64,000 nt of DNA from Acidobacteriota bacterium (GTDB lineage: Bacteria > Acidobacteriota > Terriglobia > Bryobacterales > Bryobacteraceae): the NCBI GenBank assembly GCA_014584705.1, contig JACTMJ010000002.1:74914-138913 (forward strand). Reading direction: 5' to 3'. The translations under genes and the position numbers were made by a program. The notes below the pieces were generated by a model. The model searched no databases. It was not told the DNA's origin and saw only the letters and a list, made by a program, of their open reading frames with translations. Shown here piece by piece: positions 2 to 63,210 of this stretch (within the stretch, counting starts at the first letter, position 1; the number at the start of each line of letters is the position of its first letter).

Positions 2-637
2 TGCCTGTATTTCGCCAAGGACTTCGCGCGGATGCGGCGGCAGCAGGCTGAGCATCGCTGGGAACAGTTCGAGGTGAGCATCGTTGCCGGGAAGACGATG
101 GTGATCCTGGGATACGGGGAGATCGGGCGCGCCTGTGCAAAGCGGGCCGCCGCGATGGGGATGAAAGTGCTGGGAATCCGGCGGAGACCGGAACTCTCCT
201 ACGGCGACCAATACGTCGAGCGAGTGGTGGCATTTGATGATCGCGCGGCGTGGATCCCGGAGGCGGATTATCTGGTGCTGGCGGCACCCAGCACGCCGGA
301 GACCAGGGGGCTGGTGGGGGTAGAGGAGATTGCCTCCATGAAGCCAGACTCCGTACTGATCAATGTCGGGCGCGGGCCGGTGGTGGAGGAAGCGGCGTTG
401 GTATTGGCGCTGCGGGAGAAACGGATTCTCGGGGCGGCGCTCGACGTGTTCGACGAAGAGCCGCTCCCGGCCGGACATGCATTTTACGATCTCGATAACG
501 TACTCCTTTCGCCGCACTGCGCCGACATGACGCCGGAGTGGCTGGAGGATTCGATGCGCTTTTTCATCGGGAACTACGGGCGCTTCCGCGCGGGAGCGGT
601 GCTGGAGAACGTCGTGAACAAAGAATTGGGGTATTGA
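2..637 (+). CDS. D-isomer-specific 2-hydroxyacid dehydrogenase family protein (5' end outside window)
   Basis: Reading frame is open to the window edge. Has the NAD-binding GxGxxG motif (VILGYGEIGRACAKRA) and family C-terminal motifs NVGRGPVVEE and LLSPHCAD. Confidence 0.85.
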   Translation, partial: CLYFAKDFARMRRQQAEHRWEQFEVSIVAGKTMVILGYGEIGRACAKRAAAMGMKVLGIRRRPELSYGDQYVERVVAFDDRAAWIPEADYLVLAAPSTPETRGLVGVEEIASMKPDSVLINVGRGPVVEEAALVLALREKRILGAALDVFDEEPLPAGHAFYDLDNVLLSPHCADMTPEWLEDSMRFFIGNYGRFRAGAVLENVVNKELGY

Positions 638-638
638 G

Positions 639-1961
639 ATGCGGAACGTTTCATATTCGATTCGCCGGGCGCTGCTTGTCGCGCTGCTGATTTCATTTGG
701 AGCCTTCGCCACGGCGCAGGAGGCACCCTACGTCCCCTCCAAGGAGAACCTGGCGGCCCGGCAGTGGTTCCAGGACGCCCGGTTCGGCCTCTTCATCCAT
801 TGGGGCGTTTACAGCGTGCTTGGCAAGGGCGAATGGGTGATGAATAACGACCACATGTCCAAGACCGATTACGAGATGCTGCCGCCGCGCTTCAACCCGG
901 CAAAGTACGACGCCGCTCAGTGGGTGGCCCTGGCGAAAGCCGCCGGGATGAAATACATCACCATCACGAGCAAGCACCACGACGGCTTTGCCATGTGGAA
1001 TACGAAACAAAACAGTTGGAATATCGTGGACGCCACGCCGTACGGCAAGGACGTACTGAAGGCGCTGGCGGAGGAATGCCGGAAGCAGGATATCAAGCTA
1101 TTCTTCTACCATTCGCACCTGGACTGGTATCAGAACGAGTATTTCCCGCGAGGACGGACGGGCCACTATTCCGTCCGGCCCGACTACGGAAACTTCGACA
1201 AGTACCTCGACTACATGGATGCCCAACTGACGGAACTGTTGACGGAGTACGGGCCGGTGGCGGGCATCTGGTTCGACGGCATCTGGGATAAGAAGGACGC
1301 GCCCTGGCGGCTGCGGCGCACCTACGACCTGATCCACAAGCTGCAGCCGGCGGCGCTCGTGGGCAATAACCATCACCTGAAGCCGTTCGCGGGCGAAGAC
1401 TTCCAGATGTTCGAGAAGGACCTTCCGGGACAGAATACAACCGGCTTTAGCGGCGAATCCGAGATTGGGAATCTGCCGCTGGAAACCTGCGACACCATCA
1501 ATGGGGCGTGGGGCTACAACGAGAGTGACAAGCGCTTCAAGTCAACGAAGCAGTTGATTCACTACCTGGCGCGAGCAGCCGGGCACAACGCGAATTTCCT
1601 GCTGAACGTGGGTCCGAAGCCGGACGGTACCATCCAGGACGAGTTTGTGGAGCGGCTGCGGGAAATGGGCGCGTGGCTGGGCAAGAACGGAGAAAGCATT
1701 TACGGCACACGCGGCTATGCGAGAGTGCCGCCGCGGAATTGGGGCGCGGCAACGCAGAAGGGCGATACCATCTATATTCACGTGCTGGACTGGCAGGATG
1801 AGGTGCTGGCTCTTCCAAAGCTCTCGGACGTAAAAAGCGCCCGGCTGCTGGCGGACGGCACCGCCGTGAAGGTGGATCAACTGGCCGACGCGACGCTGCT
1901 GCACCTGCCCGCCGGGAAGCGCGACCCCTACGACACCGTGGTGGCATTGAGCACAAAATAG
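639..1961 (+). CDS. alpha-L-fucosidase, GH29 family, exported
   Basis: 440-aa ORF with a signal-like N-terminus (ALLVALLISFGAFATAQE). GH29 hallmarks FGLFIHWGVYSV and ITSKHHDGFAMWNT are present. Confidence 0.9.
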   Translation: MRNVSYSIRRALLVALLISFGAFATAQEAPYVPSKENLAARQWFQDARFGLFIHWGVYSVLGKGEWVMNNDHMSKTDYEMLPPRFNPAKYDAAQWVALAKAAGMKYITITSKHHDGFAMWNTKQNSWNIVDATPYGKDVLKALAEECRKQDIKLFFYHSHLDWYQNEYFPRGRTGHYSVRPDYGNFDKYLDYMDAQLTELLTEYGPVAGIWFDGIWDKKDAPWRLRRTYDLIHKLQPAALVGNNHHLKPFAGEDFQMFEKDLPGQNTTGFSGESEIGNLPLETCDTINGAWGYNESDKRFKSTKQLIHYLARAAGHNANFLLNVGPKPDGTIQDEFVERLREMGAWLGKNGESIYGTRGYARVPPRNWGAATQKGDTIYIHVLDWQDEVLALPKLSDVKSARLLADGTAVKVDQLADATLLHLPAGKRDPYDTVVALSTK

Positions 1962-2001
1962 CGGGTGGCCCGATCCAGGCGCGCCGCAAGTGGAGCAAAG
2001 A

Positions 2002-3048
2002 ATGAACTATCCCGAGAAGATTGGCGATATCGCCGAACTCGAAGACGCACTTTCGCAACCGTCCGAACGTGATATCGCGGCAATGGCCGCGCTCGATGGC
2101 GATGTGATGCTGCTGGGCGCGGGCGGCAAGATGGGTCCGTCACTGGCGCGGTTGGTGAAAAGGGCGTCGGTAGCCGCCGGGGTGAAGCGCCGGGTGATTG
2201 CGGTGGCGCGGTTTTCCGACCAGACATTGCTCTCGCAATTCGCGGCCCACGATATTGAAACGCTACCGGCCGACCTGCTGAAAAGCGAGGATCTGGCCCG
2301 ATTGCCCGACGTTCCCAATGTCATCTACATGGCGGCGAAGAAGTTCGGCACCAGCAGCGGCGAAATGACGGAAGCCGCCGCAACGTGGGCGATGAACGCC
2401 TACCTGCCGGGCCGGGTGGCGGAGCGCTTCGCGAAGTCGCGGATCGTGAGTTTTTCCACCGGGAACGTCTATCCGTTTACCGCGGCGGCCAGCGGCGGAG
2501 CAACGGAGAACACCCCGATGGAGCCCGTGGGAGAATATGGGCTTTCCGCTCTGGCGAGAGAGCGCATCTTCACCCACTTCTCACATCAGTACGGGACGCC
2601 GATGGCGATTCTGCGGCTGAACTATGCGATCGACCTTCGCTATGGGGTGCTCACGGATCTTGGCCGGAAGGTGCTTGCCGGGGCACCCGTGGACGTGACG
2701 ATGGGAGCCGTGAACGTGATCTGGCAGCGGGACGCGAATGCGGCGTGCCTGGGTTCGTTCGCGCACTGCGCGACGCCGCCCGACGTGTTGAATTTGACGG
2801 GTCCGGAGACGCTCTCCGTGCGCTGGCTGGCGACCGAATTAGGCAACCGGCTGGGCAAGAATCCCGTGCTCACGGGCGAAGAGCAGGCGACGGCGCTATT
2901 GAGCAACGCGACACGCTGCCAGAACCGCTTCGGCTATCCGACCGTGCCGGTGGCGAAGTTGCTTGACTGGGTGGCGGACTGGCTGCTGGCGGGCGGGGAG
3001 ACCTGGGATAAACCGACGAAGTTTCAGGTACGGGATGGAAAATTCTAA
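2002..3048 (+). CDS. NAD-dependent epimerase/dehydratase (SDR) family protein
   Basis: GGAG lies 6 nt upstream of ATG 2002; a longer GTG start at 1990 is possible. Rossmann motif LLGAGGKMGPSLARLV. Family-level call only. Confidence 0.75.
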   Translation: MNYPEKIGDIAELEDALSQPSERDIAAMAALDGDVMLLGAGGKMGPSLARLVKRASVAAGVKRRVIAVARFSDQTLLSQFAAHDIETLPADLLKSEDLARLPDVPNVIYMAAKKFGTSSGEMTEAAATWAMNAYLPGRVAERFAKSRIVSFSTGNVYPFTAAASGGATENTPMEPVGEYGLSALARERIFTHFSHQYGTPMAILRLNYAIDLRYGVLTDLGRKVLAGAPVDVTMGAVNVIWQRDANAACLGSFAHCATPPDVLNLTGPETLSVRWLATELGNRLGKNPVLTGEEQATALLSNATRCQNRFGYPTVPVAKLLDWVADWLLAGGETWDKPTKFQVRDGKF

Positions 3049-4073
3049 TGGACTTGCGGAAACGACTTTTCGAGGGAGTGGCGATCCCCGCGCATCCTCT
3101 GGCATTGAACGCGCAGCGGAAGCTGGACGAGCGGCGGCAAGCCGCGTTGACGCGGTATTACGTAGACGCGGGAGCGGGCGGAGTAGCTGTGGGCGTGCAT
3201 ACGACGCAATTCGCCATACGCGAGCCCAGGTTCGGTTTGTTTGAACCGGTGCTAAAGCTGGCCGCGGTCGCGCTGGGAGACCGGCCGGTGATTCGCGTGG
3301 CGGGAATTTGCGGGAAGACCGGGCAGGCTCTGCGGGAAGCCAAATTCGCAGCCGATTGGGGCTATCATGCCGGCCTGCTGAGCCTGAGCGCCTTTCGGGA
3401 CGACTCCGTGGAAGCGATGCTGGACCATGCGAGGGCGGTGGCCGAGGTCCTGCCGGTGTTCGGGTTCTATCTCCAACCCGCCGTTGGCGGGCGTGTGTTG
3501 CCGTATGCTTTCTGGCGGAAGTTTGCGGAAATCGAGAATGTCGTGGCAATCAAGATGGCTCCGTTCAACCGCTATCAGACGCTGGATGTGATCCGGGCGG
3601 TGGCGGATGCGGGAAGGACTGATTCGATTGCGCTCTACACGGGCAACGATGATCAGATCCTGGGCGATTTGCTGACGGCGTTTCCCGCGGGTGGGCAGAC
3701 GGTGCGAATCAGCGGTGGATTGCTGGGGCACTGGTCCGTGTGGACCAGCGCGGCCGTGAAACATTTGGAACTGGCAAAGCAGATTCATGCCAACGGAGGT
3801 GGCATCTCCAAGGAAATCCTGACGCTGGCGGCGGAGATCACCGATTCCAACGCCGCGCTGTTTGATGCGGCGAATGGGTTCCATGGGTGCATCGCCGGCT
3901 TGCATGAGATTCTTCGGCGGCAGGGATTGCTCGAAGGGCGCTGGTGTCTGGATGAGCATGAAGATCTCTCGCCGGGGCAGATGGAAGAGATTGATCGTGT
4001 CTGCCGCCAGTATCCGCATTTGACGGACGACCAGTTCGTGGAAGAAAACTTGCATCGCTGGCTGAATGCATGA
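3048..4073 (+). CDS. dihydrodipicolinate synthase / class I aldolase (DapA-like) family protein
   Basis: TAATG stop/start overlap with the upstream gene. 341-aa ORF with a DapA/NAL-family-like N-terminal region (GVAIPAHPLAL...VGVHTTQF). Substrate unknown. Confidence 0.65.
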   Translation: MDLRKRLFEGVAIPAHPLALNAQRKLDERRQAALTRYYVDAGAGGVAVGVHTTQFAIREPRFGLFEPVLKLAAVALGDRPVIRVAGICGKTGQALREAKFAADWGYHAGLLSLSAFRDDSVEAMLDHARAVAEVLPVFGFYLQPAVGGRVLPYAFWRKFAEIENVVAIKMAPFNRYQTLDVIRAVADAGRTDSIALYTGNDDQILGDLLTAFPAGGQTVRISGGLLGHWSVWTSAAVKHLELAKQIHANGGGISKEILTLAAEITDSNAALFDAANGFHGCIAGLHEILRRQGLLEGRWCLDEHEDLSPGQMEEIDRVCRQYPHLTDDQFVEENLHRWLNA

Positions 4074-5104: not shown

Positions 5105-5581
5105 TCAGGCCACACGCCGGCCACGCTTCGCCGCGGGCTTTGGTGCATTCCTCTCGAGGTGGCCGATGAGGCGCACTTCACTCAGTGCGATGGCAAGTTC
5201 CGCGGCTACCTGTTCTTCGCTGTGCCCTTCCTTGAGCAATCGGACGGCTTCCACCCGGCGATTGATATTCAATCCGGAGGACGCGGGCTTCTGAGGCACA
5301 CAGACCGCGGCGTAGGATTCCACATCCTCAAAACGGCTTTGCAATTCCTCCACTCCGGTGCGTACCTCGGCAAGGGCGATGTCGCTCTCCGACAGCCGCC
5401 GCCTGGCGTCGCTCGCGTTCCGTTCCATTGACTCCTGGGAGACGCGGAGGAGGCATATCGATTCGGCGAGCTCCTCCAGCCGCTGGCGGGATCGCCGGAT
5501 GGAACGCCAACCCAAATGGGCGGAGGTAATCGCGATGGCTGTGGCCGCGAGGGCGAGTGCGAAACTGATTATTGAGAGCAT
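5105..5581 (-). CDS. DUF2802-like flagellar-locus protein (N-terminal TM, coiled coil, C-terminal HTH-like motif)
   Basis: AGGA-type RBS before ATG 5581. TM segment MLSIISFALALAATAIAI, then a heptad-like region. C-terminal RRVEAVRLLKEGHSEEQVAAELAIALSEVRLIGHL resembles the conserved DUF2802 tail found in flagellar/chemotaxis clusters. Confidence 0.6.
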   Translation of the reverse strand: MLSIISFALALAATAIAITSAHLGWRSIRRSRQRLEELAESICLLRVSQESMERNASDARRRLSESDIALAEVRTGVEELQSRFEDVESYAAVCVPQKPASSGLNINRRVEAVRLLKEGHSEEQVAAELAIALSEVRLIGHLERNAPKPAAKRGRRVA

Positions 5582-5611
5582 TCCATTTTCCTTTGCAACT
5601 AGTTTTGAGGG

Positions 5612-6481
5612 CTATGCGGAACCAAGGCTGACGATTTCCTGGATGCGGACACCGTAATTGCCTTCGGTAACAACGACTTCGCCCCGACCGATGACACGAT
5701 CGTTGACGATGATCTCAACCGGGTCGTGGATACTGCGGTCCAGCTCCACAATCGAACCGGTGGACAATTTGAGCACATCCTGGAGCGCGACCTTTGCTTT
5801 GCCGAAGCTGATTCGGATGGGCAGTTCGAGATCCAACACGCGGCTGAGGTCGTCATCGCCCGTAGCGCCCGCAGTTCCCGAAGCGCGAGAGGCGCCTGAA
5901 GCGATGGGCGCCCGCACAGGGTTGTTCGGTGAAGCATCCGGTGCGGATTCGGACTTCGGACCGTCTTCTTCCTCTTGGGCGTGCCGTTCGAGGATCGACA
6001 GAAGGGATTCCGATACGCCGAAGCACAGAGGAGCAAGCGTTTGATCTTCGAACTGCAACTGGTAGCAAACCTCGAAGGCGGCGGGCGAATCGGCTCCGCA
6101 CACGACGGCTTCAAGGAGGGCGATATCGGCCGCCAGAGCACGGCCGAGAAACTGGGCCACCGCGGACAGCGCGCTTTGCAACACTTCCGTATAGCTGCCG
6201 GACACGTCTTCGTCCGTGAAATCATCGAGCCCCGCCGCGCTGAGGACGCGGGCGCCAATCGCCCTGCCGATAATCTCCGGGGCGGCTGTGTAGAGTTGCG
6301 AACCGGGCTGTGTATCCAGCGGATGCGCGCGCCATTCGCACTCAACGCCGGAAGGCGGAGGCGCTTCGGCCACTTCTACTTGCGCCCCGCAAAGCATTTC
6401 GAGCGATGCAGCCAGACGCGTGCGGAACTCGGCCGCGATCGCTTGAGGGGTCAAAGAACCGGTCGTGGATCGGGTTGTCAT
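5612..6481 (-). CDS. flagellar switch protein of the FliY/FliN family (divergent N-terminal 200 aa plus C-terminal SpoA domain)
   Basis: ATGA overlap with the fliA stop. The C-terminus (ISFGKAKVALQDVLKLSTGSIVELDRSIHDPVEIIVNDRVIGRGEVVVTEGNYGVRIQEIV) is a typical FliN/SpoA domain. I saw no canonical FliM N-terminal CheY-binding motif or CheC active-site motif. Confidence 0.7.
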   Translation of the reverse strand: MTTRSTTGSLTPQAIAAEFRTRLAASLEMLCGAQVEVAEAPPPSGVECEWRAHPLDTQPGSQLYTAAPEIIGRAIGARVLSAAGLDDFTDEDVSGSYTEVLQSALSAVAQFLGRALAADIALLEAVVCGADSPAAFEVCYQLQFEDQTLAPLCFGVSESLLSILERHAQEEEDGPKSESAPDASPNNPVRAPIASGASRASGTAGATGDDDLSRVLDLELPIRISFGKAKVALQDVLKLSTGSIVELDRSIHDPVEIIVNDRVIGRGEVVVTEGNYGVRIQEIVSLGSA

Positions 6482-17393: not shown

Positions 17394-20048
17394 TCAACTG
17401 TTCCCGCGCCCCGAGCCCCGAACCGCACCGCGGGCGTCGTCCCGAAACGCTTCGGCGCGCCCCGCGATCGCCCCGTCGAGGGTCCCGGCAAAGGACGAAG
17501 CACCCCCGCGCGGAGACAAGATCCGCGCGGAGAAGGCCCGCCGATTCTGTTCATCACCGCCCTGTTCCGGCGACCGGCCTCCCGCGAATCCTTCGCCGCC
17601 CGATTGCCCGGGCGACCCGCCTCCCTGCCGGTGGGAAGGAGCGTCGCGCCACTCGCCGTGATCCGTCGACCTCTGGCCGGAGCTTGGACTCCCGGCATCG
17701 AAGCCCGATCGCTCGAGCCGGTGGAGCAATGATGGAATCTCCGCGCGCATCTCGCGCACGAAGCGCTCCGATTGGGATTCGATGCGCACTTCAATATCGG
17801 CTCCCGCACTTCCGGCGGCCCGGTTGCCGCGCTGCAGGAAGCGGAGCCGGACATCCTCGCCTCCGCCCGCCCCCGGCAGATCCACGCGAAGCGACCGGGC
17901 CGCGGGAAGGTCCTTGCCGGCGGCGGGGCCGGGCTGCGGCGGCAACTCAGCCAGGAGCGCTTCGGCAACCTTCGGCAACGTGCCGCCGGACGGAGATTGG
18001 CCGGTAGCGGCGCCGGTTCGGATCGAGCCGTGGGCCGTGCCCCCCGCGCCCGGGTGCCCTGCGGAACCTGCATGGTTCGGGGACGCGGCCACGAGCGATG
18101 CCGGATGAAGCTCCGGATGGGCAGCCATCCCGGCCGCGCCCGCGCGGAAGGGCTTCCGCGGCCACGGCGAGGTTTCCCCGGAATCGCCGGGAGCGCTCTC
18201 TTCCGGGTGCGATGCGGCCGCGGTACCGGACGAAGCGGCGTCAGGAATCGTCATCCGCCTTGCGGCTCCCTGACCGAACCTCACCCCTCCGGCGGATCCG
18301 CTCCCGGACCCGAACCGGGGCGCGGCGAGTACGGCCGATCCCGGAATCGGAAAGTTCGTCTCCACCCCCGCTCGCGCCGGAAGCCGGACGTTGGCGTCGT
18401 TTTCCCCGGCGGCAGGCGAGGCCTCGGATAGAGGGGCCTGCCCGGTTTGTGCAAGGGTTTTCTGTTCAAGAGTGCGGGCGGCGTCCCGCGAGCCCGGAAC
18501 GGCGTGGGTTGCGATGGCTGCCCCCGGCGCCGCCGCGTCGTTAGATTCAGCGGGAATCCCCATGGCGAGCGGTCTTGCGGTGGGCGGGAAAGCGACGGAA
18601 TCGCCGGCCCGCGCGTTCGCCCACCGGGATCCCGCGAGAACCGCCGCTCCATCCGCCGCGTCGCGCATCGCGCCGTCCATCGCGCCGTCCATTGCGCCGT
18701 CCATTGCGCCGCCCATTGCGCCATCCATCGTGTCGCCCGCCGCGCCTCCGCCGCCGAGCCCCGCGTTTTCTCCAGCGGAGGCTACAATCCGGTCAACCGT
18801 AACGCGAATCGTCGGCGGTGCGGACGAGGTCCCGGAGCCAGAGCGGCCGAGATCCTCGGCGAATGCTCCGCGCCCGAAAGCCGCGGTGGCGACATCCGAG
18901 CCCGCCAGGACCGGTTCCGGAGAACCTCCCCGGCCTGCGCGTCCCGCGATACCCGGCGTCGCCTCCGTTCCAATCCGCGTCCACGGCCCGGGAGCGCCCG
19001 GTCCGGACGCGGAACTCAGGTGCGGATCCGCGGTTTGCGGATTCATGCCGCCCCGGGGGGGCGGAACTGCCTCGCCTAGCGCCGCGATGGCTTGGCCGGG
19101 AGAACCCGCGGCGGGAATCGAATGGCCGGCGACGGCCGCGGGCGCGCCCGTCGCCGCTGAATCTCTTACCGGCGCGCCGGAAGCGACCAGCGCATCGGAG
19201 TTCTCCTGGTCGCCGGGCTCCCAAGCCCGCGGGTTTTCTTCCGTTTCCTCCACGAAACCGCCGCCGCCAGCGAACCGGATTGGCCCCTCATCGGGGTTAC
19301 CCGCGGAAGTCGCACCTCCTTGGGTTGTGCGTTCTTGTGCCGGACGAGAGGCGTCCGCCGCAGCCGCGCGGGCATCGCGAGAGGCGTCGGATGCCGGTTG
19401 CGAATCTGAATTCCGGCGAGAGGCGTCCGCCATCTCCGCCCGGGCTGGCCACAATGCGGAACGGTGCGCCGGAGCACCCGATTCGAGGCGCGCCGGTGCA
19501 TTACCGCGAACCAGCGCGCGCGCGCCGACAGAGTTCGCTCGCGGACGCGAATCGGCTAAGCCCGTGCGCTGACGCTCGTTGGCTAAGCCCGTGCGCTGAC
19601 GCTCGTCGGCTAGGCCCGTGCGCTGACGCTCGTCGGCTAGGCCCGTGCGCGAACGCTCGTCGGCTAGGCCCGTGCGCGAACGCTCGTCGGCTAGGCCCGT
19701 GCGCGAACGCGCAACGCCCTCCATCCGGTTTCCCGCGTTTTGCCGCCGGTCCTCGTTCGCCTCACCCAATCTGGAGGACGGCTCGAACCGGGAGTGGCGC
19801 ACCGGATCCTCCGTTGTCTTCCCCGGCGGAGGCAAAGGCACCCGGTCCGCAAACTGCCGGGGTGTCGCGGCCGCTACATCGATGCGAGTCTCCATCCACA
19901 TCGCCAGATAGCCGCCAAACTCGGCGACACCGCGAGCCGATTCTTCCTCCCTGGGCGCTCGTCCGGCTTGCGCGGATGCGCTTGCACGGCTGGAGGATGA
20001 GAGCGAGGCCGCGGAATTCGCGGAGGACCGAATCGATGCAGGAGTCAC
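17394..20048 (-). CDS. fliK: FliK-like flagellar hook-length control protein (884 aa, Ala/Gly/Pro/Arg-rich, internal tandem repeats)
   Basis: GGGAG followed by 7 nt then GTG 20048. Sits directly upstream of flgD-flgE. The C-terminal region (LRVDLPGAGGGEDVRLRFLQRGN...IEVRIESQSERFVREMRAEIPSLLHRLERSGFDAG) resembles the FliK Flg_hook/T3S4 domain. The rest is low complexity. Confidence 0.7.
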   Translation of the reverse strand: MTPASIRSSANSAASLSSSSRASASAQAGRAPREEESARGVAEFGGYLAMWMETRIDVAAATPRQFADRVPLPPPGKTTEDPVRHSRFEPSSRLGEANEDRRQNAGNRMEGVARSRTGLADERSRTGLADERSRTGLADERQRTGLADERQRTGLANERQRTGLADSRPRANSVGARALVRGNAPARLESGAPAHRSALWPARAEMADASRRNSDSQPASDASRDARAAAADASRPAQERTTQGGATSAGNPDEGPIRFAGGGGFVEETEENPRAWEPGDQENSDALVASGAPVRDSAATGAPAAVAGHSIPAAGSPGQAIAALGEAVPPPRGGMNPQTADPHLSSASGPGAPGPWTRIGTEATPGIAGRAGRGGSPEPVLAGSDVATAAFGRGAFAEDLGRSGSGTSSAPPTIRVTVDRIVASAGENAGLGGGGAAGDTMDGAMGGAMDGAMDGAMDGAMRDAADGAAVLAGSRWANARAGDSVAFPPTARPLAMGIPAESNDAAAPGAAIATHAVPGSRDAARTLEQKTLAQTGQAPLSEASPAAGENDANVRLPARAGVETNFPIPGSAVLAAPRFGSGSGSAGGVRFGQGAARRMTIPDAASSGTAAASHPEESAPGDSGETSPWPRKPFRAGAAGMAAHPELHPASLVAASPNHAGSAGHPGAGGTAHGSIRTGAATGQSPSGGTLPKVAEALLAELPPQPGPAAGKDLPAARSLRVDLPGAGGGEDVRLRFLQRGNRAAGSAGADIEVRIESQSERFVREMRAEIPSLLHRLERSGFDAGSPSSGQRSTDHGEWRDAPSHRQGGGSPGQSGGEGFAGGRSPEQGGDEQNRRAFSARILSPRGGASSFAGTLDGAIAGRAEAFRDDARGAVRGSGRGNS
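18669..18728 (-). repeat. five tandem 12-nt coding repeats inside the fliK-like gene (GAMD tetrapeptide)
   Basis: [c/t]gcgcc[g/a][t/c]ccat repeated five times, encoding GAMGGAMDGAMDGAMDGAM. Confidence 0.9.
19554..19715 (-). repeat. six tandem 27-nt coding repeats inside the fliK-like gene (9-aa unit RTGLADER[S/Q])
   Basis: Units start at 19554, 19581, 19608, 19635, 19662 and 19689. Neighbouring units differ by 0-3 nt. Confidence 0.95.
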
Positions 20049-20263
20049 GCGGTGCTCCCTTGCAGTTTCGATACCATTCGCGCGGACACCCCGGATCCCG
20101 CACTTTCCCGCCGCAATCGCAGCCTTCCCGTGAAGAACAGCCGACCATTTTTCGTCACTGGCAAGGTTTCATCGCGCTCCCCCCTCTGCCTCTCCCCGGC
20201 CACGAGGGGACGGAAAGAGGCGCCAGACGGGCGCCGCGCGCTCCCCGGCCCGGCTTCGCCTGT

Positions 20264-20329
20264 ATTGGCCTCTCGCGTGCATTGCCTCTCGCGTGCATTG
20301 CCTCTCGCGTGCATTGACCTCTCGCGTAC
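20264..20329. repeat. four tandem 16/17-nt repeats in the divergent fliK / flgF control region
   Basis: attggcctctcgcgtgc / attgcctctcgcgtgc / attgcctctcgcgtgc / attgacctctcgcgtac. Confidence 0.95.
20265..20281 (+). promoter_or_regulatory. possible sigma-54 (-24/-12) promoter for the flgF arm
   Basis: TTGGCCTCTCGCGTGCA. The GG and GC dinucleotides have the spacing of TGGCACG-N4-TTGCW, about 76 nt before the flgF start. It forms the first unit of a 4x tandem repeat. Several consensus mismatches. Confidence 0.3.
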
Positions 20330-21929: not shown

Positions 21930-21933
21930 TCGA

Positions 21934-23633: not shown

Positions 23634-23668
23634 GTGGCGCAGATGAGGAAACATTCGAGGAAGCGATC

Positions 23669-25395: not shown

Positions 25396-25785
25396 ATGAA
25401 GATCCCCGAGTTCCAATCCGACCAGCTTCGGCAGCAAAGCTCCGACGCAGCGGCAACCATCGGTTCGCGCCGGGAAACGGTGCGTGATATTGGAAGCGAC
25501 GCCACCACCTATCCCCATTCCGGAGGAGCCGGGCCGCGGGACGAACGCGTGCCGGCGGTGGATGCGGTGGAGTTTTCGCCGCTATCCCTGACGATTATCG
25601 GCACCGCGAACGCCGATGCGCGAGTGAAGTCGTTAGAGAGCGTATTCCAGCGCGGAGAGTATTCCGCGAACGCCGAGAAGCTTGCCCACACTCTGGTGCA
25701 GACCTTCCTGGTAGAGCACGACAGCCTGGAAGCTCGGCCGGAAACGCCGTCTCCATCCAACTCGGGTAGCTTCCCGAAACAGTAG
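25396..25785 (+). CDS. flgM: anti-sigma-28 factor FlgM
   Basis: 129 aa, last gene of the flgF arm. C-terminus ARVKSLESVFQRGEYSANAEKLAHTLV fits the FlgM sigma-binding helices. Preceded by a sigma-28 promoter. Confidence 0.8.
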   Translation: MKIPEFQSDQLRQQSSDAAATIGSRRETVRDIGSDATTYPHSGGAGPRDERVPAVDAVEFSPLSLTIIGTANADARVKSLESVFQRGEYSANAEKLAHTLVQTFLVEHDSLEARPETPSPSNSGSFPKQ

Positions 25786-54965: not shown

Positions 54966-55347
54966 AGAGACGCCTCCGGCAAGCAATCCCGGCAGCGCAC
55001 CATGACGCCTTCGGTGGACGGCGGGGAAAGCAGGCTCACGATCAGCCGTCGATTTTCGACAGCCGTTTCCTGGCCGGACAGCCTGTTCGTTCTCGGCAAC
55101 CCGTTCGCGTCAGGCAGTGCATTCGTATTTGGTAATCCCTTCAGAGCAGAGCGGCCGCTTCCCGACGGGACGGTAATCGCTGAGAGCCTCGGATCCGCGG
55201 AAGTGGCTCGCGATTGCACGGCAGGCACGCCAGTCTTCGAGGGCAAGGAATTTCGAAGCGGGCGCTCGTTGGCAGCGGGCCGTGAGTTGGCAGCGGATCG
55301 GCGAATTCGCACGACGGGGACCACTTCCCCGCGACGGTACGTTCGCG

Positions 55348-55437
55348 GCCCACCCGTTCACGACCCACACGGGCGCAGCCCACACGGTCGCGGCCCACAT
55401 ATTCACTGCCCACACCGTCGTAGCCCGTCGGCGAACG
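55348..55437. repeat. six degenerate 15-nt tandem units, each starting with GCCCAC (minus strand: ending GTGGGC)
   Basis: GCCCAC-like hexamers occur at 55348, 55363, 55378, 55393, 55408 and 55423, an exact 15-nt phase, inside a region with no convincing ORF. Confidence 0.7.
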
Positions 55438-55740
55438 GACCTCGTTCGGGCGCTGGACTTCCGAAAATCTGATGGCTGAATCTCGGCGAACCCGGCTGCC
55501 GCGGGCCGACCCCGCGACAAGTGGGAGGGAGTTCCGGCTCCCGAGCCCTCCCCGCGTTCGAGACGAGGCGGCGGGAGCCGGCTTTCCAATCCCGCCTGCC
55601 TCAAGAACCCCCGGAATCGAGGCGATGCTCGACTGCAAGTACCAAGCCCTTTGGGAATGCGTTGTGCTGCCTGGACAGGATCCGCCTCGCGCGGGAATCG
55701 ACCGGAGAGCAGCCCTGGAATGCCAGAGCGCCAGCGGTGT

Positions 55741-56595
55741 CTATGCCGCTCTGGGAGCGGCGAACACAGAGACTTTTTCCAGGATCTCCTGCTTAAGCGC
55801 GTTTGGGTTGGTGTCGATACGGCGGCGAGCGGGTTGCGGCAGCATATCCACCAGGTCTTCAAACGAGTAGGTATCGGATTCAGGGGTAACGGAGAAGCCA
55901 ATCAGGTTCGTAATTCGGTTCGTGATCCGCAGCAGGTTTCCCAACTCCCGGTCGCCCGGTTCCGGAGCCTCGTGATGGGTTTGGGCAACGAAACGGACTT
56001 CCGGAGGCAGGCTCCATTCCGCGGCCAGCCATGCTCCGGCCATGCAGTGGTCGATATCGAAAATGTCGAGTTCCGCCTGGATCAGCGGCAGCCCTTCCTC
56101 GGCGGCGACGTCGAGCAAGCGCGCATACTCTTGCGGATAAGCGGTCATCATCCCCAAGCGGCCCACATCATGCAGCAATCCCGCCATGTACGCCCGTTCC
56201 GCCGGAATCCCGCAACCGCGGGCGACGTTTTCGGTGAGCACCGCGCACGCCAGGCAGTGGATCCAGCAATCGAGCAGCCGCTGATAGCGGAGCGCGGATT
56301 TGATCTGTGCGTTCAAGGCCACCATCATCACCAGAGCTTTCACCCGCTCGAGGCCAACAATCGAGATGGCGTGGGCAATGTCGCTGACCTGCTGGGAGAA
56401 GCCAAACAGCGAAGAGTTTGCCAGTCGCAGGAGTTCAAAGGAGAAAGTGGGATCAATCCGAATGACGTCGGAAAGCTGTGCATTGGAAACATTCGGATCC
56501 TGCAACAGGCCCAGCAGGCGGTTGGCCACCGGCGGAAACGGCGGCAGTTGCCGCAGTGCCCAAGGGTATTTCGGAATCGAATTCAACTTTTCCAT
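55741..56595 (-). CDS. stand-alone HDOD-domain protein
   Basis: LPPFPPVANRLLGLLQDPNVSNAQLSDVIRIDPTFSFELLRLANSSLFG...ISIVGLERVKALV...GLLHDVGRL is a typical HDOD domain. No other domain was recognised. Confidence 0.88.
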   Translation of the reverse strand: MEKLNSIPKYPWALRQLPPFPPVANRLLGLLQDPNVSNAQLSDVIRIDPTFSFELLRLANSSLFGFSQQVSDIAHAISIVGLERVKALVMMVALNAQIKSALRYQRLLDCWIHCLACAVLTENVARGCGIPAERAYMAGLLHDVGRLGMMTAYPQEYARLLDVAAEEGLPLIQAELDIFDIDHCMAGAWLAAEWSLPPEVRFVAQTHHEAPEPGDRELGNLLRITNRITNLIGFSVTPESDTYSFEDLVDMLPQPARRRIDTNPNALKQEILEKVSVFAAPRAA

Positions 56596-56715: not shown

Positions 56716-56742
56716 TTATCGGCTCCTCCGGCGAAAGGTTTA
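56716..56742 (-). promoter_or_regulatory. sigma-28 (FliA) promoter upstream of the HDOD gene
   Basis: The minus strand reads TAAA-cctttcgccggagga-GCCGATAA, an exact consensus with a 15-nt spacer. The -10 element ends about 120 nt upstream of ATG 56595. Confidence 0.75.
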
Positions 56743-56960: not shown

Positions 56961-58370
56961 ATGAGCGACCAGAAGCTGAGCAGTGAACAAGAGTTTCGCA
57001 TCGAAAAGGACTCGATGGGAGAGGTGCGCGTGCCCGCCGCGGCGCTCTACGCCGCCCAAACCCAGCGCGCGCTGGAGAATTTCCCCGTGAGCGGCATCCC
57101 CTTCCCCCGCCCGTTCATCCGCGCGCTGGGGTTGGTGAAAGGAACGGCCGCGGAGGTAAACCGCTCCCTGGGCCTCCTCGATCCGGCCGTAGCGAGCGCC
57201 GTCGCCGCCGCCGCCGCCGAGGTGGAGGCCGGGGAACACGACTCCCAGTTCCCGCTGGACATCTTCCAGACTGGCTCCGGCACGTCCACGAACATGAACA
57301 CCAATGAGGTGATTGCGACGCTGGCCACGCGGAAGCTAGGCAGCAAGGTCCATCCCAACGATCACGTGAATTGCAGCCAGAGCTCCAACGACGTGATCCC
57401 CACGGCCATGCACGTCAGCGCTCTGACGGAGACGGCGGAGAAGCTCATCCCGGCCCTGGAGCACATCGCGGGTGTGATTGACCGAAAGGCGGCCGAAGTG
57501 GACCACGTCGTTACCACCGGGCGCACCCATCTGATGGACGCCATGCCAATCCGCCTTAGCCAGGAACTGGGCGGCTGGAGCGGGCAAGTCAAGGACTGCA
57601 TCGCACGCCTGAAGGCCACTTACCCCCGCATCGGAGCGCTCGCGCTGGGCGGAACCGCGATCGGAACGGGGATCAACGCGCACCCCGAGTTCGGCGGGAA
57701 GGTAGCCGAGGCCCTCGCCGCCAAGACCGGGTTGCCCTTCGTAACCAGTTCCAACTACTTCGTGAGCCTTTCGAGCCTGGACGCGGTCGCGGAGCTTAGC
57801 GGCCAGTTGAAGACATACGCGGTTGCGCTGATGAAGATTGCGAACGACCTCCGCTGGATGAACAGCGGGCCCGTCCACGGCATCGCGGAAATCGCGCTGC
57901 CTTCGTTGCAGCCGGGCTCCAGCATCATGCCGGCGAAGGTGAATCCGGTGGTGCCGGAATCCGCCGCAATGGTCTGCGCGCAGGTCATCGGCAATGACGC
58001 AACCATCACGATCGCGGCGCAGAGCGGCAACTTTCAGCTCAATGTGATGCTGCCCGTGGCCGCCTACAACCTGCTGCAGAGCATCCACATTCTGGCTACC
58101 GCCAGCCGGATGCTCGCGGACAAGGCCATCGCCGGCTTCACCGTGAATGAAGCCAAAATTGCTTCGCTCGTGGAGATGAACCCCATCCTTGTGACTGCCC
58201 TCAATCCGATCATCGGCTATGAGAAAGGTGCGGCCGTGGCGAAGCTGGCTGCCAAGGAAGGCCGGAGGGTGAAGGATGTGGCTGCCGAGCAGACGGACCT
58301 CTCGCCGGAACATCTCGCGGAAATTCTCGACCCCCGCAAGCTGACCGAAGGCGGCGTGGCGGACGCCTGA
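56961..58370 (+). CDS. fumC: class II fumarate hydratase
   Basis: FRIEKDSMGEVRVPAAALYAAQTQRA, and GSSIMPAKVNP, a variant of the GSSxMPxKxN signature. 469 aa. Confidence 0.97.
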   Translation: MSDQKLSSEQEFRIEKDSMGEVRVPAAALYAAQTQRALENFPVSGIPFPRPFIRALGLVKGTAAEVNRSLGLLDPAVASAVAAAAAEVEAGEHDSQFPLDIFQTGSGTSTNMNTNEVIATLATRKLGSKVHPNDHVNCSQSSNDVIPTAMHVSALTETAEKLIPALEHIAGVIDRKAAEVDHVVTTGRTHLMDAMPIRLSQELGGWSGQVKDCIARLKATYPRIGALALGGTAIGTGINAHPEFGGKVAEALAAKTGLPFVTSSNYFVSLSSLDAVAELSGQLKTYAVALMKIANDLRWMNSGPVHGIAEIALPSLQPGSSIMPAKVNPVVPESAAMVCAQVIGNDATITIAAQSGNFQLNVMLPVAAYNLLQSIHILATASRMLADKAIAGFTVNEAKIASLVEMNPILVTALNPIIGYEKGAAVAKLAAKEGRRVKDVAAEQTDLSPEHLAEILDPRKLTEGGVADA

Positions 58371-58409
58371 GCGCGGCAACCTCGCAACAATTCCGACCTG
58401 CATTTGGAA

Positions 58410-58434
58410 AGCGGCCCCGGCCTCGCGGGCCGCT
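58410..58434. terminator. hairpin between convergent fumC and the Roadblock gene
   Basis: agcggccc-cggcctcgc-gggccgct (8-bp stem). The flanks are weakly T-rich on both strands. Confidence 0.45.
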
Positions 58435-58490
58435 CTTCCGTCTTTGGGAAGCAAGCGCGCCGCGCCGGCCGACTGCGATTTCCGTCGGGT

Positions 58491-59051
58491 CTAGCCCTCG
58501 CGCGCGAACTCCTGCACGGAACTGTGTTTTTCCGCGTCGCGGTAGAGCGGATCGTCGTCATCGGCGGGCGATGTGCTATAGCTTTCGAGCGAAGCCAACG
58601 CTTGCAGGGTGCGCCGCATGCTGCCCTGATCCTCTTCGTCGCGGGTGTCTTCCCGCTCTTCGAGCGCGCGAGCCTGCTCTGGATCGAGTATCCCCAGAAT
58701 TTCGTCCGCATACTTGCGGGAATAGTACATCACCATCCCGATGCTGCACCCCTCGTAGGCAACGGCGGCCAGTACCGCGCGGTTCCCCACCGCTACCACG
58801 CTCACCCAGCCCTCGAAGCCCTTGAAGCAGACTTCCTGCAATGCACCGCAGCCGCCTACTTCGGCCACCCGCCGTCCAATGCCCAGGGAAGATGCGCTCA
58901 GCGCGGCCAGGGCCTCCGCCTGATCGTTAAGATTCCGGTGCGTCACCGCTACGCCGTCCGCCGTAGCCAGCAAACAGCCACGAATGCCGCGTGTGGAGGA
59001 AGCGAGCTCCTCCAATGGGATTTCGATTTGTCGCAGGGTTTGCTGGTCCAT
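58491..59051 (-). CDS. Roadblock/LC7 (MglB-like) domain protein with acidic C-terminal extension
   Basis: GIRGCLLATADGVAVTH...SLGIGRRVAEV...GWVSVVAVGNRAVLAAVA matches the Roadblock/LC7 fold pattern. Lies 15 nt downstream of the GTPase gene. Confidence 0.8.
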   Translation of the reverse strand: MDQQTLRQIEIPLEELASSTRGIRGCLLATADGVAVTHRNLNDQAEALAALSASSLGIGRRVAEVGGCGALQEVCFKGFEGWVSVVAVGNRAVLAAVAYEGCSIGMVMYYSRKYADEILGILDPEQARALEEREDTRDEEDQGSMRRTLQALASLESYSTSPADDDDPLYRDAEKHSSVQEFAREG

Positions 59052-59066
59052 GGCAGAATTGTACTC

Positions 59067-59621
59067 CTAAACGAGGCTAAATGATCCTTCAGATCTCAAA
59101 GAGTTCGATTTCGGTGCCACGTACTCAAAGAGGATCCGCAGCGTTTCAAGAGCGCTCTCCCGGCTCCTTGCATCCACATTTACAACACAATCCGGAGGAA
59201 CCCCAAGATAAATCCCTACTTCTTCAGGCGGCCATTCTTCACTGAGATCGGTGCGCGTAAGTCCTATGACGGTTGGTACGTCGATGAATTTCTGGAGGAA
59301 CTTCAAGGTCTTCTTTGCTTCGACAAAGCAGGCCGGGCGGTCTGCCGCCACCAGCAGAACGAGGGCGTGCGCGCCATTGCATGTGACCTCCCAGAGGAAA
59401 TCGAAGCGCTCCTGGCCGGGCACACCGAAAAGCAGAATCCGGACATCGTCCACGTCCATCGTCCCGAAATCGATGCCGACCGTGGTTCCCACCTTCCCGA
59501 TGTCTTCGCTGGCGAGAACATCGGTGTCCACAAATGGCGTATCGGACAGTGTGCGAACAAATGTGGATTTTCCGGAGCCAACCGGCCCTGCAACGAGGAT
59601 TTTCGCGACGTATTCCTGCAT
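59067..59621 (-). CDS. small Ras-like GTPase of the MglA/CvnD (COG2229) type
   Basis: GGGGAG followed by 5 nt then ATG 59621. P-loop GPVGSGKST. G3 is FGVPGQERF, with no Asp as in MglA/CvnD. The G4-like motif is TRTD instead of NKxD. Confidence 0.8.
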   Translation of the reverse strand: MQEYVAKILVAGPVGSGKSTFVRTLSDTPFVDTDVLASEDIGKVGTTVGIDFGTMDVDDVRILLFGVPGQERFDFLWEVTCNGAHALVLLVAADRPACFVEAKKTLKFLQKFIDVPTVIGLTRTDLSEEWPPEEVGIYLGVPPDCVVNVDARSRESALETLRILFEYVAPKSNSLRSEGSFSLV

Positions 59622-59810
59622 TCCGACTCCCCTGAACTCGTTAGCCCGCGTCCGCCTACGAACACTTCGCATCGGATACAACGCCGTGATCACGATGGGG
59701 CTTGCGACAATTCCACTTTCCCCGAGATTGCCGGGGAAAGGTAGGCGAAGATAAAAGAAAGCCATTCCAGCACAACACCAAACCGGTAGGCCTTTGGTTT
59801 ATCCCGGCGG

Positions 59811-59839
59811 TGTAAGTGATTATACAAGAATCACTTACA
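59811..59839. repeat. 11-bp perfect inverted repeat with a 7-nt spacer in an AT-rich gap
   Basis: tgtaagtgatt-atacaag-aatcacttaca, followed by the 8-bp palindrome tagtacta (59845-52). Lies about 190 nt upstream of the GTPase ATG. Confidence 0.9.
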
Positions 59840-59974
59840 TAAGCTAGTACTATATGGTTAATTTTGACAATCCTGACCGGGTTTAGGCCGGGAAAGCGGT
59901 TCGTCCGCTGCCGAAATGGCTGAAATTGGGGCGGAGACGGGGAATCGGATGAGCAAGCACCGCCGGCTGAGCGC

Positions 59975-60988
59975 CTACGTGAGGCAGACCACGCTCGGGA
60001 GCGCGCCGGACGCCCGTTTATCGAGGGCATCCCTCTCCGCATCCACCATGATCCTGACGAGATCCCGGAACGAAGTACGGGGCTCCCATCCAAGCAGTCG
60101 GCGCGCTTTGGAGGCATCCGCTTGCAGCGCGTCCACTTCCGACGGGCGAAAATATCGCGGATCAATGACGACATAGTCGCGCCAGTCCAGGTTCACGAGT
60201 GCGAAGCACTCTTCCACAAATTCCTGAACCGAGTGGGTCTCACCGGTGCCAATCACAAAGTCGCCCGGCTCAGATTGCTGCGCCATCAGCCACATTGCTT
60301 CCACGTATTCCGGCGCGTATCCCCAGTCACGCTTTGCGTCGAGGTTCCCGAGGAAGAGTTTTTCCTGCAAACCCCGCGCGATGTGTGCCGCGGCCCGTGC
60401 AATCTTGCGGGTAACGAAGGTTTCCCCGCGCCGGGGAGATTCGTGATTGAAAAGAATCCCGCTTGAAGCGTGCATCCCGTAACCTTCGCGGTAGTTCACC
60501 GTGATGGAGTGTGCGAAGAGCTTCGCGCATGCGTAAGGGCTGCGCGGGTGGAACACCGCCCGCTCATCCTGGGGCGGAGAGGTCGCGCCGAACATCTCGC
60601 TCGAACTTGCCTGGTAGTAGCGGGCCTTCACCCCCGTGCCGCGCATCGCTTCCAGAAGCCGAAGGGCGCCCGTCGCCGTGATATCGGCTGTGTACTCGGG
60701 GATGTCAAAACTCACTCGAACGTGGCTCTGCGCCGCCAGGTTGTAAACCTCATCGGGGCGAATGTCGTAGAGCAATTTCCAAAGACTGCTGGCGTCGCTC
60801 AAGTCCGCGAAGTGCAGGTAGAAATTCGGCTTCTCGTGGGGATCTTCGTAGATCGGGTCCACCCGTTCCGTATTGAAGCTGGACGAGCGCCGCTTGATGC
60901 CATGCACTTCGTAACCCTTCGCCAGCAGGAACTCGGCGAGATAGCTGCCGTCCTGCCCGGTAACCCCCGTAATTAGCGCTCGACGCAT
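59975..60988 (-). CDS. gmd: GDP-mannose 4,6-dehydratase
   Basis: [41 protein letters not shown]..., YACAKL, and the full 337-aa Gmd pattern. Confidence 0.96.
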
Positions 60989-61069
60989 CGGCCCGGCTCC
61001 CCCTTTGAGCGTGCGTGCCGGGGCAAACCGTTGGGAACGTAGCCCTGCGAACGCCCGCTCTGTACGGGT

Positions 61070-61096
61070 ATATCGGCGTTGGAACGCAGATCTTTA
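61070..61096 (-). promoter_or_regulatory. sigma-28 (FliA) promoter upstream of gmd
   Basis: The minus strand reads TAAA-gatctgcgttccaac-GCCGATAT (15-nt spacer). Lies in the 125-nt gap between the upstream gene stop (61114) and the gmd ATG (60988). Confidence 0.7.
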
Positions 61097-61113
61097 GGAG
61101 CTTCTAAGCCGCT

Positions 61114-61800
61114 TTAAGGCGTGGGCGTGCGATCCGCCCTTCCGCGCCGGAGATCCGGCAGGAACTCATTCACGGCATTCCCGCCCATCCTGCCAAGGAA
61201 TCCGTAGAGCACCCGCAGGAGAGCGTCCCCCGCGGAAGACTGGCTTCCCACCCGCCATGCGTTCTGCATGAAGTTGCTTGATGGAATGGCAATGAAGCGC
61301 GAATAGGCAGGCATCCGTTCCCCACGCGCATTGGTGGCCGTGACGCTGGAGAGCAAGACGTGCCCGATGCGCCCCTTGAGGTCGCCGCGAAGCGTGCCGC
61401 CCTTGCGATAATAGCGGGGATCTTCCCCCCAGATCCCGCCGAGGCCGGCTTCCATTCCGTTGCTAATGGCAAGGCCCGAAATAGCCAAACCATAGCGTTT
61501 CCCGAATCCGCCCCAGGTTTCCGGATACTCGTGCGGGGATCGCCAGGCAGTAGACCACGCGGCACTAAAGACCGAACTGCTTACGGCTGCCGTGCCGGTA
61601 CCGCGCAGATACCATTGCAGGCGGTCTTTGCCGGTAGCGGGAACATAATCGCGAACGGAGGTCGGCAACGGTATGACGGCGGGCGCTGCGGCGTCCGCAT
61701 TCGCCTCCTGGCCGGTGGCAGGAGTCTCAGCCGCCGCGAATTGGGGTATGATCGCAAGCAGACAACTGAGCACCAACCCCAGAACTCGGTCTCTGAGCAT
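61114..61800 (-). CDS. hypothetical exported protein
   Basis: GGGAGG followed by 7 nt then ATG 61800. Signal peptide MLRDRVLGLVLSCLLAIIPQFAAAE. No family recognised. Confidence 0.5.
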   Translation of the reverse strand: MLRDRVLGLVLSCLLAIIPQFAAAETPATGQEANADAAAPAVIPLPTSVRDYVPATGKDRLQWYLRGTGTAAVSSSVFSAAWSTAWRSPHEYPETWGGFGKRYGLAISGLAISNGMEAGLGGIWGEDPRYYRKGGTLRGDLKGRIGHVLLSSVTATNARGERMPAYSRFIAIPSSNFMQNAWRVGSQSSAGDALLRVLYGFLGRMGGNAVNEFLPDLRRGRADRTPTP

Positions 61801-61986
61801 CGAACCACCTCCCGATTTCAGCCAGCTTTCTGGATCCGGAACGCACCGCGCCCCACCGCGGGTGCAGCCCGCCGAAACATCCATGTGTTCTTCGGGTCAC
61901 GCCCTTACAGAATAGCCTTGTTTTCGCCGATATCCGCCGTTCCAACTCCGATCTGACGGCAACGCGATGAAATACTATAAGGAGGT

Positions 61987-63210
61987 ATGGGCATTTTCTC
62001 GGGACGCAAGACACCCCAGTTCCGGCTGGAACAGGTAATGGATCTGGAAAAGGCGTATGTCTTGCAAAATTATGGCCGCTACCCGCTGCTGCTCTTGCGG
62101 GGCGAAGGCCCCTACGTCTGGGACGACCGCGGCCGGCAGTATCTCGATTTCATCGCGGGCATCGGCGTCAATGGCTTCGGCCATGCGCATCCTCGCATTG
62201 TGAAAGTGATTCAGGAGCAGGCGGCGCTGATGATCCACTGCTCAAACCTGTACTACAACCCCTACCAGGGCATCCTCGCCAAACGCCTGGCGAGCATTAG
62301 CGGCCTGCAGCGCACCTTTTTCGCCAATACGGGCACAGAGGCGATGGAAGGCGCCATCAAGATGATCCGCTCCCATGGCCGCGCCATTTCGCCCGCCAAG
62401 CACGAAATCGTCTCGCTCGAAAACTCCTTCCACGGAAGATCCACCGGAGCGCTGGCGCTCACCGGCCAGCCGAAGTACCGGAAAGATTTTGAGCCACTGC
62501 TGCCCGGAGTGAAGTACGTCCCCAAGCAGGATATCGCCGCGCTCGAGGCCGCCGTCAACGAGAACACGGCGGGCATCGTACTCGAAGTGGTTCAGGGCGA
62601 GGGAGGGATCTATCTGATCGACGAGGCTTTCCTGCGCAAAGCGCGCTCCCTGGCGGACAAGTTCAACGCCCTGCTCGCATTCGACGAGATCCAATGCGGC
62701 GTGGGGCGTGTGGGCAAGTATTTCGCTTACCAGATGTACGACCCCGCCGTGATGCCCGACATCATGGTGACCGCGAAGCCCATCGGAGCGGGGCTGCCCC
62801 TCGGCGTGATCTGCTCGAATGAGAAGGCATCGGTCACGATTGGCGCCGGGATGCACGGAACCACCTTTGGCGGCGGACCCCTCGCCTGCCGCGTGGGAAT
62901 CGAGTCTCTCGATCTTCTCGAGGAATTGCTGCCTTCCATCCGCGAGGTGGGTGCCTACTTCAAAGAACAACTCCGCAAGCTGGCGTCCCGCCACAGAATG
63001 GTCAAGGAAGTGCGGGGCACGGGCCTGATGCTGGGCATGGAGCTTGATCGCCCTGGGAAAGACCTCGTCACCGACGCGATGAATGAGGGCCTGCTGATCA
63101 ACTGCACCAACAACACCGTGCTGCGCTTCCTGCCGCCCTTCGTCATCCGCAAGAAGGATGTGGACCGGGCGGTAAAGGTGCTCGACAAGGTGCTGAAGCG
63201 CGCCGCGTAG
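61987..63210 (+). CDS. argD: acetylornithine/class-III aminotransferase
   Basis: YVLQNYGRYPLLLLRGEGPYVWDDRGRQYLDF, FDEIQCGVGRVGK, TFGGGPLA. The alternative start ATG 62038 gives the more typical N-terminus. Confidence 0.9.
   Translation: MGIFSGRKTPQFRLEQVMDLEKAYVLQNYGRYPLLLLRGEGPYVWDDRGRQYLDFIAGIGVNGFGHAHPRIVKVIQEQAALMIHCSNLYYNPYQGILAKRLASISGLQRTFFANTGTEAMEGAIKMIRSHGRAISPAKHEIVSLENSFHGRSTGALALTGQPKYRKDFEPLLPGVKYVPKQDIAALEAAVNENTAGIVLEVVQGEGGIYLIDEAFLRKARSLADKFNALLAFDEIQCGVGRVGKYFAYQMYDPAVMPDIMVTAKPIGAGLPLGVICSNEKASVTIGAGMHGTTFGGGPLACRVGIESLDLLEELLPSIREVGAYFKEQLRKLASRHRMVKEVRGTGLMLGMELDRPGKDLVTDAMNEGLLINCTNNTVLRFLPPFVIRKKDVDRAVKVLDKVLKRAA

Follow-up and report, generated by a model that had tools for sequence, protein, structure and literature searches.

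A probable sigma-28 promoter for a lone GDP-mannose 4,6-dehydratase gene in a clade of Bryobacterales

The 64,000-nucleotide (nt) window analysed here (GenBank assembly GCA_014584705.1, contig JACTMJ010000002.1, positions 74,914 to 138,913) comes from an acidobacterium of the order Bryobacterales, and encodes on its minus strand gmd, a gene for GDP-mannose 4,6-dehydratase. Just upstream of gmd, at 61098..61070 on the same strand, lies a sequence that is probably a working promoter for FliA (sigma-28). This assessment draws on sequence comparison: the site matches the FliA consensus in both halves; it recurs in the window far above the expected count; its -10 block is invariant among relatives; and FliA itself is encoded in the window. 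The promoter and its gene comprise the following features:

61070 to 61098, minus strand: sigma-28 (FliA)-type promoter, recognized by its sequence, its consensus match, the invariant GCCGATA in seven distinct relatives, and its fliC-like geometry
61098 to 61092, minus strand: extended -35 element CCTAAAG, with the core TAAA at 61096 to 61093
61092 to 61078, minus strand: spacer gatctgcgttccaac, 15 nt from the core TAAA and 14 nt from CCTAAAG
61077 to 61070, minus strand: -10 element GCCGATAT, a seven-of-eight match to the proteobacterial consensus GCCGATAA
61062, minus strand: predicted transcription start, placed by analogy with the Pseudomonas aeruginosa fliC promoter, 8 nt past the last -10 base
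60989 to 61061, minus strand: predicted gmd 5' untranslated region (UTR), about 73 nt, with ribosome-binding site GGGGGAG 8 nt before the ATG
59975 to 60988, minus strand: gmd, GDP-mannose 4,6-dehydratase (EC 4.2.1.47), 337 amino acids (aa), identified through Pfam PF16363, TIGR01472, and PDB 1n7g

The minus strand here reads ctCCTAAAGatctgcgttccaacGCCGATATacccg. The original prediction, made from the sequence alone, had described TAAA, a 15-nt spacer and a -10 element between 61096 and 61070, within a 125-nt gap upstream of gmd, and all of these coordinates are right: the upstream open reading frame (ORF) ends at 61114 and gmd begins with its ATG at 60988, which leaves 60989..61113 as the gap. 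The site is intergenic and oriented toward gmd, its -10 element ending 82 nt before the ATG. Its final -10 base is T, where the proteobacterial consensus has A; GCCGATAT is the form of the -10 consensus known for Bacillus subtilis SigD (TAAA-N15-GCCGATAT). The -35 and -10 elements are spaced as in the P. aeruginosa fliC promoter, in which the sigma-28 open complex has TCTAAAG at -36 to -30 and GCCGATAA at -15 to -8 (PMC12784957). This shared geometry places the gmd start at about 61062, the position given in the original prediction. Judged by its sequence, the site has every feature looked for in a FliA promoter. No sigma-70-like promoter was found in a search of 58000..62500.

How often should such a sequence arise by accident? 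The window holds three copies of the exact motif TAAA-N15-GCCGATA, where dinucleotide-preserving shuffles lead one to expect 0.02, and none of 100 shuffles reached three. Relaxing the search to one mismatch from TAAA-N15-GCCGATAA returns the same three exact sites and nothing else (0.05 expected). All three are intergenic, and each points at the next gene: gmd, a gene for a FlgM-like protein, or a gene for an HDOD-domain protein. The two further sites and their genes are as follows:

25345 to 25371, plus strand: second sigma-28 site, CCTAAAG-N14-GCCGATAC, 25 nt before the FlgM-like ORF
25396 to 25785, plus strand: FlgM-like ORF, 129 aa, which closes the flgF-G-A-H-I-J cluster
56716 to 56742, minus strand: third sigma-28 site, TAAA-N15-GCCGATAA, a perfect match, 120 nt before the HDOD gene
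55741 to 56595, minus strand: HDOD-domain gene, behind the third sigma-28 site

The FlgM-like site is the positive control, as flgM is a classic sigma-28 target. It has in common with the gmd site the extended -35 CCTAAAG and the N14 spacing (GCCGATAC versus GCCGATAT at the -10). FlgM is the sole match of the 129-aa ORF in both Pfam (PF04316, E 0.011) and NCBIfam (TIGR03824, E 0.009), and both matches cover one C-terminal stretch. The site before the HDOD gene is kept in every relative whose locus extends that far (L161, L162, L164, L169, L170, and L181); the HDOD protein is likely to belong to the FliA regulon as a signalling protein. Behind the HDOD gene, on the same strand, comes a 165-aa ORF (55141..55638) that matches no family.

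Homologues of Gmd place the window in the Bryobacterales; the nearest named proteins come from Bryobacterales metagenome-assembled genomes (MAGs), at 91-93% identity. Look-ups of Gmd proteins 83-94% identical to that of the window led to loci arranged alike: ILEI-domain protein, class-III aminotransferase (opposite strand), hypothetical secreted protein, gmd, small GTPase, Roadblock, fumarase (opposite strand), and HDOD. From 12 such loci, the 200 nt preceding gmd were aligned; they comprise seven distinct sequences. GCCGATA is invariant in all seven, against a mean column identity of 64%; the gap has 149 columns, of which 17 do not vary, and the contiguous GCCGATA block accounts for seven of those (column-permutation p ~1e-5). 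The -35 element reads TAAA, TAAT, TCAA, or TAAC. The spacer holds its length (15-16 nt) and is free in sequence. Such a bipartite consensus, with fixed spacing and a free spacer, argues for a promoter rather than an RNA element or a palindromic operator. In relatives with both upstream regions present, matches with at most one mismatch lie solely upstream of gmd and HDOD. A negative control is provided by TACA-N16-GCCGATAT (61906..61933), a one-mismatch site before the aminotransferase gene, which has no counterpart in any relative. The motif is conserved across all syntenic relatives; its absence from relatives, which the original prediction had named as grounds for giving up the idea, is not what the alignments reveal.

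Conservation does not extend to more distant gmd genes. In 160 unrelated loci (identity at most 76%) drawn from genome and metagenome collections, the regions upstream of gmd do not keep the motif, and the exact TAAA-N15-GCCGATA has no match there. A lone near-consensus case, with one mismatch, turned up among 153 unrelated gmd loci searched at three spacer lengths, which is about chance level: in an Ignavibacteriales MAG (L012, ~5873..5900), CAAA-N16-GCCGATAA lies 128 nt upstream of a gmd 66% identical to that of the window.

The cognate sigma factor is encoded 54 kb from gmd, within the same window, along with two blocks of flagellar genes:

6478 to 7257, minus strand: fliA, sigma-28 factor, the last regulator gene of the flgE..flhA-flhF-fliA cluster, directly after flhF
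7330 to 16931, minus strand: flgE, fliN, fliP, fliR, flhB, flhA, and flhF
20357 to 25335, plus strand: flgF, flgG, flgA, flgH, flgI, and a FlgJ-like rod-binding protein

The fliA product exceeds the curated cut-offs of TIGR02479 FliA_WhiG (226.3 bits versus 189.6) and PRK06986 FliA (210.8 versus 201), and aligns with Escherichia coli FliA (6pmi_F) at 8e-44. The sigma-4.2 helix ESR[IV]SQL is kept, as is DWxPRxxRR, the segment whose arginines read the extended -10. No flagellin gene was found in the window.

For the gmd product, TIGR01472, the 'gmd' equivalog, scores 508.5 bits against a cut-off of 415, and Pfam GDP_Man_Dehyd (PF16363) matches at 4.5e-134, in agreement with the original prediction's naming of the gene. 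In alignment with Arabidopsis MUR1 (PDB 1n7g, 6e-138), SSEMFG (SSE), YACAK (YxxxK), and NHESPRRG all find their counterparts, and the catalytic motifs (S/T-E and YxxxK) are intact. By homology, gmd is a genuine GDP-mannose 4,6-dehydratase gene.

These results suggest a model. RNA polymerase bearing FliA would initiate near 61062 and transcribe gmd in vivo, and gmd would thereby join the late (class-III-type) genes of the flagellar regulon in this clade of Bryobacterales. Presumably the gene would be released from FlgM inhibition together with the FlgM-like and HDOD genes, and the supply of GDP-4-keto-6-deoxymannose would rise while cells build filaments.

Several observations weigh against this model. 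The flagellar gene closest to gmd is 34 kb away. No fcl, rmd, per, epimerase, reductase or glycosyltransferase gene was found near gmd, either within the window or over the ~9 kb that follow it; the original prediction had likewise seen no partner enzyme next to it. More distant Bryobacterales (Gmd 77-83% identical), whose gmd stands in a gmd-fcl or gmd-glycosyltransferase context, lack the motif, and the link between promoter and gmd is therefore specific to the clade with Gmd at least 83% identical. The FlgM assignment of the 129-aa ORF, on which the positive control depends, falls below curated cut-offs. FliA binding sites in E. coli are sometimes non-productive. Finally, no intrinsic terminator was found between the upstream gene and gmd, so that read-through from another promoter could also feed gmd; sigma-28 may add to other transcription of the gene rather than replace it.

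The genes on either side of gmd enter into the alternatives:

61114 to 61800, minus strand: upstream gene, secreted hypothetical protein, 228 aa, from the M29 start as called in relatives (the ORF extends to 61884)
59622 to 59800, minus strand: conserved non-coding leader, about 180 nt, defined by the relatives' alignments, directly upstream of the MglA-like GTPase gene
59067 to 59621, minus strand: MglA-like small GTPase, downstream of gmd
58491 to 59051, minus strand: Roadblock/LC7 MglB-like protein, downstream of the GTPase

That the GTPase and Roadblock genes come next on the same strand had been correctly noted at the outset. The sigma-28 promoter could be real and yet have this pair, a possible polarity or motility switch, as its relevant cargo, with gmd merely the first gene in the transcript. 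The shared strand, the synteny of the pair in most relatives, and the lack of a clear conserved terminator after gmd speak for such an arrangement. Two results make it improbable. The gap between gmd and the GTPase gene spans 353 nt and contains conserved elements of its own: ATAGTACT, a palindrome, and the 180-nt leader. Moreover, the L171/L172 lineage (Gmd 84% identical) retains the hypothetical gene, the sigma-28 motif and gmd, and has no GTPase/Roadblock pair; there a convergent gene, unrelated to the window's fumarase, begins 31 nt past the gmd stop. The promoter thus travels with gmd, which points to gmd as its target. Given the pair's own conserved leader, and a lineage that lacks the pair, read-through into these genes appears unneeded.

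The conserved blocks might have nothing to do with sigma-28. GCCGATA and TAA could form the operator of another regulator, or an RNA element in the 3' or 5' UTR of transcripts whose start lies before the hypothetical gene, a reading for which the missing terminator leaves room, and with which the invariance of four bases just past the -10 element (within ACCCG) would also agree. We consider this still less probable than the GTPase/Roadblock alternative. Both consensus halves stand at fixed spacing around a free spacer, which is the signature of a promoter, and the motif recurs in front of the FlgM-like and HDOD genes. The gmd 5' UTR, for its part, has no significant RNA structure (fold z-score +1.12), and a search of Rfam around gmd and the GTPase leader matched no family. 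Accident is the least credible explanation of all. The motif is short and its last -10 base is T instead of the proteobacterial A; nevertheless, three sites against 0.02 expected per window, the invariance of GCCGATA in relatives, and the failure of the chance-like one-mismatch site nearby (61906..61933) to be conserved speak otherwise, and conservation effectively refutes a functionless match. A FliA promoter serving gmd is the reading we favour.

The upstream hypothetical gene lies outside the sigma-28 transcription unit. Its product has no Pfam or NCBIfam match, and a functional tie to gmd was considered and rejected: the protein belongs to a widespread unnamed family whose members, at 50% identity, are located elsewhere.

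If gmd is a FliA target, where does its product go? Fucose, D-rhamnose, 6-deoxytalose, perosamine, and colitose-type sugars all derive from GDP-4-keto-6-deoxymannose, whose most likely use here would be a glycan of the motile phase. Glycosylation of flagellin or of another flagellar part is the leading candidate; a lipopolysaccharide or exopolysaccharide variant made in the motile phase is the second, and a live alternative. The fullest version of the model would make the orphan Gmd a true late flagellar gene product that feeds GDP-6-deoxyhexose (D-rhamnose, fucose, or perosamine-type) to the glycosylation of flagellin or other extracellular flagellar parts, with the transferase and the modifying enzymes encoded at scattered sites elsewhere in the genome, under the same FliA regulon. 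We regard this version as speculative and rather unlikely. The hallmark of flagellin glycosylation, sugar genes and a dedicated glycosyltransferase grouped with flagellin or flagellar genes, was not found: no glycosyltransferase or GDP-sugar-modifying enzyme is encoded within ~10 kb of gmd, and the window has no flagellin gene. The original prediction had joined a FliA-type promoter to a deoxyhexose on flagellin or its sheath: the promoter has gained from fliA in the window, the two further sites and conservation, and the sugar's destination finds no support in the sequence. The neighbouring aminotransferase was considered as a partner in sugar synthesis and set aside, as it belongs to class III and not to the DegT sugar type.

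At the far end of the window, 32..4073 on the plus strand encodes an alpha-L-fucosidase (639..1961) together with 2-hydroxyacid dehydrogenase, NAD-dependent epimerase-family, and DHDPS-family proteins. The epimerase (1990..3048) adjoins the fucosidase and looks catabolic. The cluster as a whole resembles a fucose-scavenging or catabolic one, in a window that also encodes gmd, an enzyme able to start GDP-fucose synthesis.

The promoter itself is of a familiar kind. Class 3 FliA promoters (P. aeruginosa fliC; E. coli and Salmonella fliC and flgM; B. subtilis SigD promoters) have the same -35 element (C/T)CTAAAG, the same -10 element GCCGATA(A/T), and the same spacing. As in those systems, the cognate FliA is encoded nearby and a FlgM-like gene sits behind the same type of promoter. 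The usual targets, however, are filament, motor and chemotaxis genes, whereas the gene here encodes a nucleotide-sugar dehydratase and the host is an acidobacterium.

Sugar-nucleotide genes are coupled to flagellar regulons in Campylobacter, Helicobacter, and Pseudomonas (general knowledge and a review, PMC8987622). The pseudaminic acid genes of the first two and the glycosylation islands of the third follow the same logic, in which sugar-nucleotide supply is tied to flagellar assembly. Those sets use UDP-, CMP- or dTDP-sugar routes, and lie beside flagellin genes and dedicated glycosyltransferases (Maf, Fgt). The present candidate is by contrast a lone GDP-mannose dehydratase with no transferase nearby, 34 kb away from any flagellar gene.

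Gmd of the enterobacterial colanic-acid (wca) operon belongs to the same enzyme family (E. coli Gmd, PDB 1db3, 2.7e-125). The wca gmd gene is activated by Rcs, expressed inversely to flagella, and located with fcl and glycosyltransferase genes. The gene in the window is instead an orphan, apparently on together with late flagellar genes, which would be the opposite regulatory sign. Closer to hand, the ordinary gmd genes of other Bryobacterales, those 77-83% identical and without a sigma-28 motif, have a gene for a GDP-fucose-synthase-like epimerase or for a glycosyltransferase behind them.

Full-text literature searches turned up neither a FliA-dependent gmd nor any study of flagellar or FliA regulon control in Acidobacteriota; searches on flagellin glycosylation with gmd or GDP-fucose returned nothing relevant. 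No new mechanism is proposed, and the understanding of sigma-28 promoters and of Gmd is unchanged. What the window offers is a clean, conserved sample of three promoters from an acidobacterial FliA regulon (FlgM-like, HDOD, and gmd), in which the FliA consensus is the canonical one. Acidobacteriota are an abundant, understudied soil phylum, and the result is a testable prediction of regulon membership. For gmd, that membership would point to a 6-deoxyhexose glycan of the motile phase, a lead for flagellar or surface glycosylation. If true, an orphan late-flagellar Gmd would represent a GDP-sugar-based route to flagellar glycosylation, and a first glimpse of flagellar gene regulation in Acidobacteriota.

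Some features of the flagellar region deserve mention. No flhG (MinD-like) gene lies between flhF and fliA. Downstream of fliA are two ORFs without a confident family (5105..6345, minus strand; 248 and 158 aa), the shorter of which has a faint match to DUF2802 (E 0.06). Between the flgE and flgF clusters sit an 884-aa ORF (17394..20048, minus strand; a stretch of 71% G+C) and an 89-aa ORF (20045..20314, minus strand). Neither has a Pfam match; their position suggests FliK-/FlgD-like roles in hook length or hook cap.

On the other side of gmd, the class-III aminotransferase gene (61987..63210) is immediately preceded, within 61935..61986 on the plus strand, by GCGATGAAATACTAT(A/T), which is kept in all relatives; the remainder of the divergent gap is not conserved. 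This element could be a regulator's binding site, or part of a promoter or ribosome-binding region.

The leader of the GTPase gene is more conserved than either the flanking coding DNA or the gmd promoter gap. In the relatives it occupies 4061-4243 of L161, 5199-5382 of L164, 5198-5385 of L166, 5177-5380 of L169, and 5195-5382 of L170. Two invariant stretches, ATG[G/C]CTTTCTT.TATCTTCGCCTACC and AAAGTGGAATTGTCGC, flank a hairpin whose stem varies with partly compensatory substitutions. Support from covariation is weak, with six sequences: 93% of cells are paired, a share that is ~50% once the partners are slid. In the predicted fold, a UCUUC stretch is base-paired to the ribosome-binding site, and a covariance model of the leader finds matches only at the syntenic site. 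The possibility that the leader is an N-terminal extension of the GTPase was rejected, as L164, L166, and L170 have breaks in the reading frame. By its conservation pattern the leader is a candidate new cis-regulatory RNA; as a feature separate from the gmd promoter, it marks out the GTPase/Roadblock pair as controlled on its own.

Between gmd and this leader lies an AT-rich island (59815..59890, minus strand), which holds the invariant ATAGTACT and, within that, in the window, the palindromic core TAGTACTA. The island also contains a perfect 9-bp inverted repeat, GTAAGTGAT-N9-ATCACTTAC, that overlaps TGTATAAT, a sequence resembling an extended -10 element. The palindrome is not kept in L166 or L169; it is kept in L164 with compensating changes (GAAGTGATTG...CAATCACTTC). 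Possibly, the island is the GTPase operon's own promoter together with its operator.

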